64,000 bases of DNA, taken from positions 8,049-72,048 of the forward strand of contig JAUPKX010000005.1 in NCBI GenBank assembly GCA_030837225.1. The letters are read 5' to 3'. Source of the DNA: Patescibacteria group bacterium (GTDB lineage: Bacteria > Patescibacteriota > Minisyncoccia > Phycocordibacterales > Phycocordibacteraceae). The notes under the pieces were generated by a model. That model was not told the DNA's origin. It searched no databases and worked only from the letters and a program-made list of their open reading frames with translations. Positions 7,129 through 11,194 of this stretch are shown here, one piece after another; positions within the stretch are counted from its first letter, which is position 1; every line of letters begins with the position of its first letter. The translations under genes and the position numbers were made by a program.

Positions 7129-7184
7129 GAATAGTTAGAATGAAATTGGTAAGAACATGAGTTTTCTTGTGTTCCGCCTATTCT
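7129..7184 (+). repeat. 5' arm of a long rRNA processing stem (inverted repeat partner at 10936-10986).
   Basis: 'tagttagaatgaaattg...aacatg...ttcttgtgttccgcctattc' is the reverse complement of 'gaataggcggaacacaag...catgtt...catttcattctaacta' downstream of the 16S. Confidence 0.75.
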
Positions 7185-7642
7185 TAATGAGAGTTTGATC
7201 CTAGCTCAGGATGAATGCTGGCTGTATGGATAAGGCATGCAAGTCGAACGGACCGCAAGGTCAGTGGCAGACGAGGTAGTAACACGTAGGTACGTACTCC
7301 GAAGTCGGGCATAGCCAACCGAAAGGTTGGGTAATTCCCGATAGTCCCGTAAGGGTAAAGATTTATCGCTTCGGAAGCGGCCTGCGTAGTATCAGCTTGT
7401 TGGTAAGGTAACGGCTTACCAAGGCTACGACGCTTAGGGGAGCTGAGAGGCTGACCCCCACCGATGGGACTGAGACACGGCCCATACTCCTACGGGAGGC
7501 CGCAGTCGAGAATCTTCCGCAATGGACGCAAGTCTGACGGAGCGATACAGCGTGATGGACGAAGTGCTTCGGTACGTAAACATCTTTTATGTGGGACGAA
7601 ATTATTGACGGTACCACATGAATAAGGGGCTCCTAACTCTGT

Positions 7643-8555
7643 AGAGTTAACGGTTAGGAATACCACAGCAAAGAATTCTGTAATTACTGGTGCAGCGTAG
7701 GTGAGCAATCGCCTACGAGAAAACTTGGCTATATGCTGGAAATCTCAAGGGACTGCGTCCTATAAAACTTAGGTTTTATAGGATCCCTTGAGACAATCAG
7801 CAGGGAAGTCGGGTATACTTAGTGAATGATCTGTGCTTTCTCTAATACGCAACGAGATATACTTGTTGGTCTTATGCTCGGAGATGGAAATCTCGAGTTT
7901 AATGGCTACCGAGGTACTCGATTGCAAATAAAGCAATCGGAGGAGAAAGAAGGGTATGTGCTCTGGCTTCACAGCCAGTTTGCAGATCTCGTACGGACTC
8001 CTCCGCAGCAACGAATGGATACACGTCAATGGTATTTCGGGACGCGCTTCTTCGAGAATTTAGAAGATCTAAGAAAGATTTTCTATAGCGATCGAAAGAA
8101 AGTTGTTCCTGCAAATATCAATGATCTGTTCCAGTCACCGCTCACGCTCGCGGTGTGGTTCATGGATGATGGACGGCTCGATTATCGAGCAAAGTCGCAT
8201 TATGCGTACCGTATAAGCACTGATTCCTTTACGGAATCAGAAGTGAAGCAGTTGCAAACATTGTTGTTAGAGAGATTTGGCATAGTGGCAAAAACGTATT
8301 TGTCACTGTGTCGAGGAAAACGCTATCCAAAGCTTTATATCGGAAAGGAAGGACGTGATCAGTTTACAAAGACTGTCGCTCCCTATATCCTTCCGTGCTT
8401 TGGATACAAGCTTCCTCCAGATTATCGCCAATATATCTTGACCCCTCAGAGACTACACGCCGAGCCCCGCATACGAACATAAGCGGGTGATGATATAGTC
8501 CGATCCCTACCGTGAGGTAGGTGGTCTCCTTACAAGAGACCTCTAAAACTGAATG
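7643..8555 (+). mobile_element. Group I intron 1 in 16S, inserted in the 'CTAACTCCGTG|CCAGCAGCCGCGG' region. It carries a homing endonuclease ORF.
   Basis: The upstream exon ends in T (U) and the insertion ends in G, as expected for group I splicing. The flanks reconstitute the conserved 16S sequence. Confidence 0.7.
7826..8482 (+). CDS. LAGLIDADG homing endonuclease (intron-encoded).
   Basis: Two LAGLIDADG-type motifs are present: 'LVGLMLGDGNL' and 'LAVWFMDDGRLD'. The ORF is located entirely inside the 16S insertion. Confidence 0.8.
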   Translation: MICAFSNTQRDILVGLMLGDGNLEFNGYRGTRLQIKQSEEKEGYVLWLHSQFADLVRTPPQQRMDTRQWYFGTRFFENLEDLRKIFYSDRKKVVPANINDLFQSPLTLAVWFMDDGRLDYRAKSHYAYRISTDSFTESEVKQLQTLLLERFGIVAKTYLSLCRGKRYPKLYIGKEGRDQFTKTVAPYILPCFGYKLPPDYRQYILTPQRLHAEPRIRT

Positions 8556-9418
8556 GCCAGCAGGAGCGGTAATACAGAGGCCCCAAGCATTATCCGGAAT
8601 CACTGGGCGTAAAGGGTGTCAAGGCGGTTATGTTAGTCGTTCGTTAAATCTGGGGGCTCAACCTCCAGCCTGCGAGCGAAACGGCATAACTTGAGGTCGG
8701 GAGAGGTATGTGGAACTCATGGTGTAGGGGTGAAATCCGTTGATATCATGGGGAACACCAAAGGCGAAGGCAGCATACTGGCCCGAATCTGACGCTCACA
8801 CACGAAAGCCAGGGTAGCGAATGGGATTAGATACCCCAGTAGTCCTGGCCCTAAACGTTGCTCGCTCGCTTTACGGAGTATCGACCCTCTGTGAGGCTAA
8901 GCTAACGCGGTAAGCGAGCCGCCTGGGTAGTACGATCGCAAGATTAAAACTCAAAGGAATAGACGGGGACTCGCACAAGTGGTGGATGATGTGGCTTAAT
9001 TCGTCGATAAGCGAAAAACCTTACCAAGGCTAGAAACCATGCTGCACGCTCCCAGAAACGGGAGAAGCCTTCGAGGGTGCATGGCAGGTGATGCATGGTC
9101 GTCGTCAGTTCGTGGCTTGAGCTGTTCCCTTCAGTGGGGTAACGAACGCAACCCCCGTTGTCTGTTAAATTTTCAGGCGAGACTGCCCCCTCACGGGGGA
9201 GGAAGGTGGGGATGACGCCAGATCAGCATGTCCCTTGATGCCTTGGGCTGCACACGTCATACAATGGGTGGTACAGAAGGACGCAATACGGTAACGTGGA
9301 GCAAATCCCAAAAACCACCCCCAGTACGGATCGAGGTCTGCAATCGACCTCGTGAAGCCGGAATCACTAGTAATCGTGGGTCAGCACACCACGGTGAATA
9401 CGTTCTCGAGTCTTGTAC

Positions 9419-9843
9419 TCATTCAAAAAAGTGCTCGGCAGGTATATAATCCAGTCCGTTAAAATCGGACCCAGATCTCTGAACGTGATCTGCGTAGCAA
9501 ACGGACAGTCGGAGAACCGCGAGGTTCACGGCAGAGGGTCCTAGTAGCAAAAAGCAGCCCTCCTGTAGTGATACAGGTAATGAAGCGTTCGCGACCCATC
9601 CTGGTGAGTGATGGGGAAGCGGGCCACTGAAAAGCTTCGAGCGGATGCAAGGAACGGAATATATACTGACCCGAGGAGATCTCATGAGGGTAGAGGTTAT
9701 ACACACCTCATGAGAAGTCAGCTGCGTCGTAGTAAGTATTGCAAAATACTGAAGGACAAAACCGGTATCAGTAAGATACTGGGCTCGCGTAGTACGAGAA
9801 ATTCGTACGCTACGTGGGAACGCGAAATTGACCTCAATTATCG
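9419..9843 (+). mobile_element. ORF-less group I-like intron 2 in 16S, inserted in the 'TTGTACACACCGCCCGTCA' region. The boundaries are within +/-3 nt.
   Basis: The 16S signature 'cttgtac' at 9411-9417 is separated from 'ccgcccgtcaagtcagg' at 9847 by about 425 nt. This insertion has no long ORF. Confidence 0.5.
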
Positions 9844-9934
9844 CAATCCGCCCGTCAAGTCAGGGAAGTTGGGGGTACCCGAAATCTTGGTTTATCCAGG
9901 ACTACGGTAAATTCAATGACAAGGACTAAGTCGT

Positions 9935-10738
9935 AGGGGCAATCTGCCCTAGTTGCGACTCTAAGCGAGTAATCGCTTTGCAATCAATTCGGCTATATGC
10001 TGGAACATCTGAGTATCCCTCGCTACGAGGTATAATAATAATTATGCCCGTGACAATGCGTAGGGTGCAGAAAATCAGCAGGGAAGGCCCTGGGGGACAG
10101 CAACTCAGCTCGTCCTCTAGGGAACCCTCAGAGACTACACGCCGAACTCCTCGGTGGACAAAGCGGCAACGCATCGCTCTTGCATACCTTAATGGTGCGC
10201 TTGGTGACGCGAGCCGCAATAAGAGATCACGCATCCGCTATGCGCAAAAGTATCCAGAATGGCTTCGAATGCTTCAGCAGTTACTTGCTGAACTTGGAGC
10301 GAAATCCTGGATGTATAAGGAGGGAAAACAGCGCTCAGTATTCGTACTTGAGACTTGCTGTCCTCAACTTGATTTTGCATGTAACGGAGAGCATCTTGAA
10401 ACGCGAGACGAAAGAATCGCCTACCTTCAAGGGTTCTTCGATGCTGAAGGTGGTGTTCCGCATGGGATACACGCACGCTTCTATATTCAGTTAGTCCAAA
10501 AAGACCGACCGAAAGTAGAGATGCTTGCTCGCATGCTGGACACACTCAGTATCAAGACTGGTGTCGTACATAATCCAAGTGTTCGTGTTGATCCTGAATA
10601 CTGGAGAGTATTCGTATCGACCCGTTCGCATGCTGCGTTCGCGCAGATAATTGGTTCGCGACATCCGGTCAAAGGACCGATCCTCCAGACGAGGATGAAG
10701 ATATAGTCCATGCCGCATGGCGACATGCGGGAAATCAT
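9935..10738 (+). mobile_element. Group I intron 3 in 16S, inserted inside 'AAGTCGT|AACAAGG'. It carries a second homing endonuclease ORF.
   Basis: Exon junction 'aagtcgt'+'aacaaggcacgg' restores the conserved helix-45 sequence. The exon ends in T and the intron ends in G. It shares the motifs 'ggctatatgctggaa' and 'gatatagtcc' with intron 1. Confidence 0.7.
9978..10706 (+). CDS. LAGLIDADG homing endonuclease (intron-encoded), a paralog of the first.
   Basis: 'LAYLNGALGDAS' and 'LQGFFDAEGGV' are LAGLIDADG-type motifs. The ORF is wholly inside the third 16S insertion. Confidence 0.75.
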   Translation: MQSIRLYAGTSEYPSLRGIIIIMPVTMRRVQKISREGPGGQQLSSSSREPSETTRRTPRWTKRQRIALAYLNGALGDASRNKRSRIRYAQKYPEWLRMLQQLLAELGAKSWMYKEGKQRSVFVLETCCPQLDFACNGEHLETRDERIAYLQGFFDAEGGVPHGIHARFYIQLVQKDRPKVEMLARMLDTLSIKTGVVHNPSVRVDPEYWRVFVSTRSHAAFAQIIGSRHPVKGPILQTRMKI

Positions 10739-10935
10739 GAACAAGGCACGGCTAGCGGAAGCTGGTCGTGGAACATATCCAATCGGAATGAGAAGTCAGA
10801 AATGACTCTCTCCGGTCGATTATCGCTCTTCGGAGAGATAGGGAGATGGCGCTGCGTCCCTAAACGCGCGCACGGACGCCGGAAAAACGCACCGGTAGTT
10901 TGGTAGGAGCGCTCAATTGACGCTCGTACTGGACT

Positions 10936-10986
10936 GAATAGGCGGAACACAAGAGTACGTCATGTTCAACATTTCATTCTAACTAT
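10936..10986 (+). repeat. 3' arm of the rRNA processing stem (pairs with 7129-7184).
   Basis: Reverse-complementary to the 5' arm across roughly 45 of 50 positions. Confidence 0.75.
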
Positions 10987-10989
10987 CTG

Positions 10990-11045
10990 AAAAACCCCGT
11001 GCGGAACGATTCTCCTTGGAGTATCGTTCCGCACGGGGTTTTTCT
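10990..11045. terminator. Strong GC hairpin flanked by A-run and T-run; a rho-independent, potentially bidirectional terminator after the 16S unit.
   Basis: 'aaaaaccccgtgcggaacgat-tctccttggagt-atcgttccgcacggggttttt' has a 20-bp perfect stem. Confidence 0.6.
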
Positions 11046-11118: not shown

Positions 11119-11194
11119 GCAAGCGTAGCTCAGTTGGTAGAGCACTCGACTGATACTCGAGCGGTCGTAGGTTCGAATCCTACCGCTTGCACCA
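11119..11194 (+). tRNA. tRNA-Ile (anticodon GAU).
   Basis: Manual cloverleaf: acceptor gcaagcg/cgcttgc, D-arm gctc-agttggta-gagc, anticodon stem ctcga/tcgag with loop 'ctGATac', T-arm gtagg-ttcgaat-cctac, discriminator A and encoded CCA. Confidence 0.85.

Follow-up and report, generated by a model that had tools for sequence, protein, structure and literature searches.

A stretch of 64,000 nucleotides (nt) from a Patescibacteria group bacterium (GenBank assembly GCA_030837225.1, contig JAUPKX010000005.1, forward-strand positions 8,049 to 72,048; hereafter the window, numbered from its first letter) carries on its plus strand a 16S ribosomal RNA (rRNA) gene that is interrupted three times. We are highly confident that it belongs to a bacterium of the Patescibacteria, or candidate phyla radiation (CPR), and that two of its interruptions are group I introns and the third is a group II intron resembling class IIC, all of them within a presumed processing stem. 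The initial annotation had read here a CPR-type 16S gene with three introns within such a stem, and this was borne out by cmscan, by splicing in silico and by the inverted repeats and cofolding of the flanks. Its further claim that all three are group I introns holds for introns 1 and 3, but not for intron 2, which gives no match to the group I model RF00028, follows an exon ending in A and itself ends in U, possesses group II domains V and VI (DV and DVI) and pairs through an exon-binding site (EBS1) with the intron-binding site (IBS1) of the upstream exon.

The bacterial small subunit rRNA model RF00177 matched the plus strand of the window in pieces from 7183 onward, and the insertions were not placed as expansion segments by the covariance model. 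Joined in silico, the four exons (Table 1) total 1464 nt, in keeping with the ~1.45 kb estimated initially, and their alignment to Escherichia coli rrsH runs from end to end with an identity of 67.4% (global alignment) or 68.8% (BLAST segments). The insertions measure 913, 426 and 805 nt, within 1 nt of the initial estimates (~913, ~425 and ~804), and lie after E. coli U516, A1398 and U1498 (sites S516, S1398 and S1498). All six junctions are fixed by more than alignment, because related genomes have uninterrupted alleles that equal the predicted ligations exactly, namely CTAACTCTGT^GCCAGCAGGAGC at S516 (loci L021, L040 and L050; ^ marks the junction), CTTGTACTCA^CCGCCCGTCAAG at S1398 (the Kaiserbacteria metagenome-assembled genome (MAG) L061) and AAGTCGT^AACAAGG at S1498 (L061 and L058). 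A 1-nt (A) ambiguity in the DNA at S1498 is settled by the group I rule on 9935-10739. The whole precursor is enclosed by a long-range stem of roughly 55 bp, presumably processed by RNase III, in which the arm pairs 7131-7146/10971-10986 and 7165-7183/10936-10954 are each 100% complementary and the middle is partly complementary; the cofolding energy of the arms is -66.4 kcal/mol, versus -28.6 +/- 2.7 kcal/mol for shuffles.

Intron-rich rRNA genes are difficult to assemble, and the segment from domain III to domain IV (DIII-DIV, 9735-9778) of intron 2 is unrelated to its counterpart in the otherwise 97.5-100% identical locus L058; the gene might therefore be suspected of being a pseudogene, or a chimera assembled from several 16S or intron variants. 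We regard this as very improbable, given that L058, a MAG contig from an independent NCBI assembly, runs colinear with this gene at 97.5% identity across 2.1 kb, from exon 1 through intron 2 (97.5% to window 7588-9734 and 100% to 9779-9935), that the exons are intact and alignable from end to end and both intron open reading frames (ORFs) unbroken, that the stem arms are perfectly complementary in the two pairs named above, and that the gene order is common to L059 and L061.

Introns 1 and 3 read as closely related group I introns. Intron 3 matched RF00028 over the full-length model (1-253, at 9923-10730) with 54.3 bits, exceeding the gathering score of 50. Both have the ends that the initial annotation had pointed out, the exon ending in U (U7642 and U9934) and the intron in the terminal omega-G (G8555 and G10739). 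A guide that would pair with both exons is present in each: CUGGU-GCAG at 7687-7695 in intron 1, whose first five nucleotides (7687-7691) form helix P10 with GCCAG of the 3' exon and whose GCAG (7692-7695) forms P1 with CUGU of the 5' exon, and GUU-GCGACU at 9952-9960 in intron 3, with P10 between GUU (9952-9954) and AAC (10740-10742) and P1 between GCGACU (9955-9960) and AGUCGU (9929-9934); in both, P1 has a U.G wobble at the splice site. In addition, the two introns have four identical core blocks in common (15, 14, 20 and 10 nt). Among these are the two elements noticed initially, GGCTATATGCTGGAA (P3/J3-4/P4, at 7727 and 9991) and GATATAGTCC (J8/7-P7', at 8492 and 10700), together with two more of 14 and 20 nt, AATCAGCAGGGAAG (P4'/P6) and CCTCAGAGACTACACGCCGA (J6/7-P7-P3').

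Homologues of intron 1 were obtained via its endonuclease or were already among the collected loci, and across the window copy, L037, L055, L059, L061 and L063-L066 the helices P1, P2, P3, P8 and P9 covary. P1 is GCAG with CUGU or GCGUAG with CUACGU; P2 is CGUAGGUG with CGCCUACG or CACUCGUG with UGCGAGUG; P3 occurs as CUUGGC with GCCGAG, CUUAGC with GCUGAG and UUCGGC with GCCGAA; P9 alternates among CCUACC with GGUAGG, CUCAUA with UAUGAG, CUCACA with UGUGAG and others; and P8 forms a hairpin in every case from unrelated sequences. Two of the homologues have peculiarities of their own. In the S516 intron of the Kaiserbacteria MAG (L061:3615-4735), the block GGCTATATG^CTGGAAA is split by an extra insertion of ~190 nt (TTCCCGAATTG...CCAATGGGG), which may be a nested element inside P4. 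In L037:2683-3519 the apparent 3' end of the intron is A (...GAAATTTA^GCCAGCAG) rather than G, with no obvious omega-G at the inferred junction.

Intron 2 reads as an ORF-less, class IIC-like group II intron and not as a group I intron. It has the six domains characteristic of group II introns. The last base of the upstream exon is A and the intron closes with AAU, so that an omega-G is lacking, and RF00028 gave no match on 9405-9865 even at E <= 10 with permissive filters. DV is expected to be a hairpin of ~34 nt that has a catalytic triad (AGC or CGC) whose G is in a G.U wobble, then five pairs, a bulge of 2 nt and a loop of the GAAA type; here we found the triad C9786-G9787-C9788 with the wobble G9787.U9815, five pairs, the bulge A9807-C9808, four pairs and a GAAAU loop; this helix covaries across 28 sequences. 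DVI was read by eye and lies outside the RNAalifold consensus; its bulged A9840 stands 8 nt from the 3' end, and an A at -8 or -7 together with the end ...AAU recurs in most homologues. EBS1 (loop UGAGU, 9605-9609) pairs over 5 bp with IBS1 (ACUCA, 9417-9421), a pairing present in all 28 sequences, with a compensatory change in L012 and L044 (loop UGUGU opposite exon ACACA) and a shifted register in L010 and L020, members of a variant subfamily whose site is apparently shifted. Because EBS1 pairs with the last five exon nucleotides, compensatory change included, the 5' splice site lies upstream of a 9-nt linker that precedes the GUGCU motif. A start of the intron at GUGCU (9431), which would keep UUCAAAAAA in the mature rRNA, was considered and rejected, since the uninterrupted allele of L061 reads CTTGTACTCA^CCGCCCGTCA and EBS1 pairs with ACUCA. 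In agreement with the initial annotation, intron 2 has no ORF of its own: none of its mechanical ORFs had a credible Pfam domain, the LAGLIDADG_1 ORF known from other copies is absent, and domain IV (DIV) is a hairpin of just 21 nt at 9762-9782. Intron 2 shares with the S1398-insertion family the site between A1398 and C1399, sequence homology to the members, the 5' linker and the lack of a reverse transcriptase ORF. The label IIC-like rests on the assignment of the family in the literature, on the size of the intron and on the triad.

A search pattern that combined the DII/DIII motifs with the following 3' exon retrieved 44 metagenome and 12 genome loci. Besides the intron of the window, 37 distinct introns at this 16S site were collected, of which 27 entered the alignment, making 28 full introns with the window copy. 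The named hosts are nearly all Patescibacteria (Taylor-, Azam-, Andersen-, Uhr-, Zambryskii- and Kaiserbacteria and Paceibacterota). RNAalifold predicted 89 pairs on this alignment, 69 of which have compensatory changes; 95.9% of the cells are paired, versus 37-44% when the partners were slid by 1-3 columns, and the covariation score is 0.70 versus ~0.1. As a control for the conservation that the search pattern could inflate in domains II-VI, a covariance model was built from the domain I half of the 27 homologues with the window copy left out, and its single match in the whole window lies at 9422-9624 (150 bits, E 4e-43), beginning at the first intron nucleotide.

Several points weigh against the assignment of these introns. 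With RF00028, whose gathering score is 50, intron 1 reached only 34.1 bits (E 4e-6), and its P1 is of 4 bp only. In intron 2, the sole Rfam signal is RF01998 (group II domains 1-4), whose 31.3 bits (E 6e-4) fall short of the gathering score of 35, and RF00029 (DV-DVI) matched neither this intron (at E <= 10) nor any of 30 homologous loci; the 5' motif is GUGCU, not GUGYG, and is offset 9 nt downstream of the splice site. The slid-partner comparison scored a structure that had been predicted on the same alignment, and the search pattern was derived from the window, so that pattern bases are conserved by construction. Finally, we infer the splicing of all three introns from their sequence. As to intron 1, its S516 homologues likewise reach only 27-33 bits with RF00028, which misplaces its ORF insertion, and we take it as group I despite the sub-threshold score because of the common core blocks, the P1/P10 guide, the U and G ends and the covarying helices. 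As to intron 2, the gathering score of RF01998 is passed by 15 of the 30 homologous loci scanned (36-63 bits); since RF00029 gave no match, DV and DVI were established by direct reading and covariation; the homologues have G[U/C]GC[C/U] behind an A-rich linker of 9-10 nt; and the domain I model as well as EBS1 lie outside the search pattern.

The ribozyme cores also bear on the possibility that some or all of the insertions are retained as expansion segments, or are intervening sequences whose excision by RNase III-type processing is not followed by ligation, so that the 16S rRNA would be in fragments. Fragmented rRNAs and intervening sequences excised by RNase III are known from bacteria, and Tsurumaki et al. 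(PMC11270868) count some short CPR insertions as probable cases. There is very little chance of this in the present gene, in which the insertions have conserved ribozyme cores and a guide or EBS pairing to the exons, lie within universally conserved strands (the 530 loop, the 1400 decoding site and 1498) where neither a break nor an insert of 400-900 nt is expected to be tolerable, and lack any long flanking stem of their own. That all three insertions are group I introns, the middle one having lost its ORF, is hardly credible, for although two of the three do belong to group I and the middle one is strongly structured (z = -4.6) and has the length usual for group I introns that lack an ORF, it has neither an RF00028 match nor a U/G pair of ends nor any of the core blocks common to introns 1 and 3, and it contains covarying group II domains; homologues of the intron exceed the Rfam group II threshold.

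With two group I introns and one IIC-like group II intron, the gene would be processed as follows. The single-copy-type 16S gene would be transcribed as a precursor of ~3.8 kb whose 5' and 3' flanks pair into the ~55-bp stem, and the three ribozymes would be removed and the exons religated to yield a 16S rRNA of ~1.46 kb. Removal and religation would be required because the insertion points fall in the 530 loop, in the decoding centre (1398/1399) and at the top of helix 44 (1498/1499). For introns 1 and 3, splicing would follow a guanosine-initiated two-step transesterification, the guide pairing with both exons through P1 with its U.G wobble and through P10. In intron 2, the 5' splice site would be set by the 5-bp EBS1-IBS1 pairing, 9 nt upstream of GUGCU (the '5' terminal linker'), with the bulged A9840 of DVI positioned for lariat formation.

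Both group I introns encode a putative homing endonuclease with two LAGLIDADG motifs in an uninterrupted ORF. The ORF of intron 1 scored 113.4 bits with PF03161 (cut-off 25) and has the motifs ILVGLMLGDG and LAVWFMDDG; that of intron 3 scored 61.5 bits with PF14528 (cut-off 22.5) and has LAYLNGALGDA and IAYLQGFFDAEGG; acidic residues occur in the motifs of both. By sequence reading, the intron 1 ORF lies in P6 upstream of the J6/7 block and continues through J6/7, P7 and P3' into P8, while the cmscan alignment places the body of the intron 3 ORF in P8, its N-terminal part overlapping P5 to P3'. The LAGLIDADG_2 ORF has 455 homologues, several of them from named CPR MAGs, and tblastn located homologues of the LAGLIDADG_3 ORF in the S1498 introns of L002, L030, L033 and L014; overall, the S1498 introns of relatives encode LAGLIDADG_2 or LAGLIDADG_3. 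The two proteins had been described as paralogous double-motif enzymes. The double motif is present in both, but paralogy in any meaningful sense was rejected, as they belong to different Pfam families, show no similarity to each other by BLASTP (best E = 14) and are placed in P6 and P8, respectively. That related ribozymes hold unrelated-looking endonuclease genes in different loops points to independent acquisitions of the two ORFs rather than to paralogy. Each predicted enzyme would cut intron-less 16S alleles at the DNA level and so drive the copying of its intron, whereas intron 2 of the window, which has no endonuclease gene, would be unable to home by itself.

The relatives are polymorphic for these elements. 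L058 lacks intron 3, and its intron 2 is 850 nt long (1835-2684), with a completely different domain III and with a 152-aa single-motif LAGLIDADG_1 ORF in DIV. For the unrelated DIII-DIV segment of the window (9735-9778), no close match to a donor was found among 66 loci, the universally conserved GAAGGACAAAACC alone being matched; the sequence comparison suggests an exchange of this segment and not a mere deletion. In L061 intron 1 alone is present, and other relatives have two to seven insertions per 16S gene. Such a pattern of presence and absence is as expected for mobile elements driven by homing endonucleases with gain and loss of ORFs, and close relatives that differ in the presence of intron 3 and in the endonuclease gene of intron 2 offer a natural illustration of the homing-endonuclease gain and loss cycle. 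The upper extreme is L038 (Ga0210057_1000207), with apparently seven insertions at spliced positions ~164, 293, 406-461, 738, 1028, 1095 and 1326, among them group I-like matches and the group II intron found here. The spliced 16S of the window is 82-84% identical to those of Taylorbacteria, Zambryskiibacteria and Paceibacterota MAGs, and the order SecDF, AAA_18, AA_kinase, 16S, PrcB_C, Mur ligase recurs in a Kaiserbacteria MAG. On 16S identity and gene order, the host is assigned to the CPR/Patescibacteria, related to Kaiser-, Taylor- and Zambryskiibacteria.

Introns 1 and 3 would resemble the group I introns at conserved sites of small subunit rRNA genes, such as S516 of eukaryotic nuclear ribosomal DNA. 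They are alike in their sites, one in the 530-loop strand behind U516 and the other close to where helix 44 ends on its 3' side, in P1-P10, in the omega-G and in LAGLIDADG genes within peripheral loops, and differ in the host, here a CPR bacterium. Group I introns occur in the rRNA genes of Thiomargarita and cyanobacteria as well. By E. coli numbering, the three introns fall within the sites bound by the most widely used universal primers, 515F, 1391R/1406R and 1492R, and for this reason CPR organisms of this kind would be invisible or truncated in amplicon surveys. The 16S genes of such organisms frequently receive wrong annotations or are assembled in pieces, and a group II ribozyme that lies in the decoding-centre strand and has neither reverse transcriptase nor endonuclease can readily be mistaken for a group I intron or an 'insertion'. 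The intron-less alleles CTAACTCTGTGCCAGCAGGAGC, AAGTCGTAACAAGGCACGG and CTTGTACTCACCGCCCGTCAAG provide ready target sequences for biochemical tests.

As described in the main text of Tsurumaki et al. (2024, J Bacteriol; PMC11270868; after Brown et al. 2015), CPR 16S genes often have several insertions at few conserved sites; their group I introns encode LAGLIDADG_2 or LAGLIDADG_3; and group II-like insertions occur at position 1400 only, with a LAGLIDADG homing endonuclease (LHE) in 39 of 53, no ORF in 14 of 53 and a reverse transcriptase in none. The LHE of these group II-like insertions is LAGLIDADG_1, and ORF-less and ORF-bearing copies are intermixed among relatives. The window is alike in all of these traits as given in that text, with no essential difference, and its site labels 16IS5, 16IS9 and 16IS10 may correspond to S516, S1398 and S1498. 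All three intron types and sites are thus already catalogued for CPR 16S, and the current understanding is unchanged. Mildly under-described is the anatomy of the CPR 1398 ribozyme, with its conserved A-rich linker and retained branch A: the insertions were classed by Rfam models in that study, whose main text is without 5' linker, EBS1-IBS1 or DV/DVI anatomy.

By description, intron 2 also resembles the rns-1396 group IIC-LHE family of Liu et al. (2026; PMC13190283), which was found only in four Thiotrichaceae genera (Thiomargarita and others) and whose members all have a 5' terminal linker and lack EBS2. The likeness lies in the 1396-1400 strand, the compact IIC-type ribozyme, the 5' linker and the absence of a reported EBS2, and where an LHE is present in that family it is single-motif and located in DIV, as in L058; the window copy differs in being ORF-less, with its short DIV hairpin, and in its host, which is CPR and not Thiotrichaceae. 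Mitochondrial rRNA group II introns, according to PMC4424553 (summarising Li et al. 2011), splice 1-33 nt upstream of GUGYG. As in these introns and in Clostridium tetani C.te.I1, a linker displaces the 5' splice site of intron 2 upstream, with EBS1-IBS1 recognition and loss of EBS2; the mitochondrial introns, in contrast, are of class IIB1 and, where they have the linker, have mostly lost the branch-point A, whereas intron 2 is IIC-like and, in common with most of its homologues, has retained a bulged A at a distance of 7-8 nt from its 3' end.

In the homologues the linker has the consensus ~RAAUURAAW, with AAA immediately ahead of G[U/C]GC. A speculative and rather unlikely proposal is that the ORF-less 1398 introns, widespread in Patescibacteria, form a distinct IIC-like lineage in which a functional A-rich 5' linker of 9-10 nt lets the ribozyme choose a splice site 9 nt upstream while the branch A is kept. 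If true, this would be a mechanistic route to 5' splice-site displacement distinct from that of mitochondrial rRNA introns, with splicing perhaps coupled to the folding of the decoding centre. A variant subfamily (L010, L020, L047 and L049, inserted at 16S ~1397) has a linker of just 1-2 nt (TCGG^GTGCC), the 3' end ...TA and a shifted EBS1 loop (CGAGUAC with GUACUCG), the insertion site having apparently moved by one nucleotide; its hosts include one recorded as Gammaproteobacteria and another as Andersenbacteria. Intron 2 begins (9422-9450) with a sigma-70-like TTCAAA-17-TATAAT (10/12), the best in the region, which is probably due to chance, being unconserved in the homologues.

Table 1. Coordinates in the window of the 16S gene, its introns, their ORFs and the adjoining features
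Feature	Position	Strand	Description	Basis or context
5' arm of enclosing stem	7131-7183	+	long-range stem around whole 16S precursor; presumed RNase III processing stem	inverted repeats, cofold
16S exon 1	7183-7642	+	460 nt; E. coli ~1-516; last base U7642	RF00177, rrsH alignment, intron-less alleles L021, L040, L050
Intron 1	7643-8555	+	913 nt; group I, S516	
LAGLIDADG_2 ORF	7826-8482	+	218 aa, two motifs; PF03161 1.4e-32	in P6 of intron 1
16S exon 2	8556-9421	+	866 nt; E. coli 517-1398; 3' end ACUCA = IBS1 (9417-9421)	cmscan, rrsH alignment
Intron 2	9422-9847	+	426 nt; group II (IIC-like), S1398, ORF-less	
Intron 2, 5' linker UUCAAAAAA	9422-9430	+	9 nt	
Intron 2, GUGCU motif	9431-9435	+		
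Intron 2, EBS1 UGAGU	9605-9609	+	pairs with IBS1	
Intron 2, DII/DIII	9685-9757	+	conserved GAAGUCAGC...GUAGUA...GAAGGAC	RF01998 match
Intron 2, DIV hairpin	9762-9782	+	21 nt	
Intron 2, DV	9784-9818	+	CGC triad 9786-9788; AC bulge 9807-9808	
Intron 2, DVI	9822-9844	+	bulged A9840; followed by 3' end AAU9847	
16S exon 3	9848-9934	+	87 nt; E. coli 1399-1498; last base U9934	rrsH alignment, intron-less allele
Intron 3	9935-10739	+	805 nt; group I, S1498	
LAGLIDADG_3 ORF	10044-10706	+	220 aa from first in-frame ATG, two motifs; PF14528 9.7e-17, two stretches	P8 of intron 3
16S exon 4	10740-~10790	+	51 nt; helix 45 and 3' tail GGAACAUAUCC..., without CCUCC anti-Shine-Dalgarno	rrsH alignment
3' arm of enclosing stem	10936-10986	+		inverted repeats, cofold
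Intrinsic-terminator-like hairpin	10989-11044	+	27-bp hairpin and T run	closes 16S unit ahead of tRNA-Ile(GAU)
tRNA-Ile(GAU)	11119-11194			3' of terminator-like hairpin

The 16S gene forms a stand-alone unit, which the 27-bp hairpin with its T run separates from tRNA-Ile(GAU), and a spacer of ~150 nt (10790-10935) lies between the 3' end of the 16S and the 3' arm of the stem. Since neither a 23S nor a 5S gene is present anywhere in the 64 kb of the window, the rRNA genes are unlinked.

The 3' tail of the 16S (10770-10790) is GGAACAUAUCCAAUCGGAAUG and has no CCUCC anti-Shine-Dalgarno (anti-SD). Its loss is common to related Patescibacteria (Taylor-, Zambryskii- and Kaiserbacteria and Paceibacterota), being observed in L005, L013, L015, L016, L018, L025, L027, L029, L031, L032, L034, L039, L041-L043, L045, L050, L051, L055, L059, L061 and L065, whose tails have a short palindrome in its place (UCCAAUCGGA, UUCAAAUUGAA); CPR with the same group II intron from Azam-, Andersen-, Uhr- and Kerfeldbacteria retain GGAUCACCUCCUUUCUA. 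A search of the literature for anti-SD loss in Parcubacteria or CPR returned nothing relevant. Within the window, GGAG, GAGG or AGGA at -20 to -4 precedes six of 53 long ORFs with crudely called start codons, versus a background of 15.6%, so there is no Shine-Dalgarno enrichment. At many first-in-operon starts, a TAnnnT box resembling a -10 element stands 6-15 nt before the ATG, examples among the starts examined being 17470, 27978, 34746, 38879 and 49159, and 36923 and 38802 on the minus strand. These starts look like those of leaderless or very short-leader mRNAs, and together with the lack of Shine-Dalgarno enrichment they would fit the missing anti-SD.

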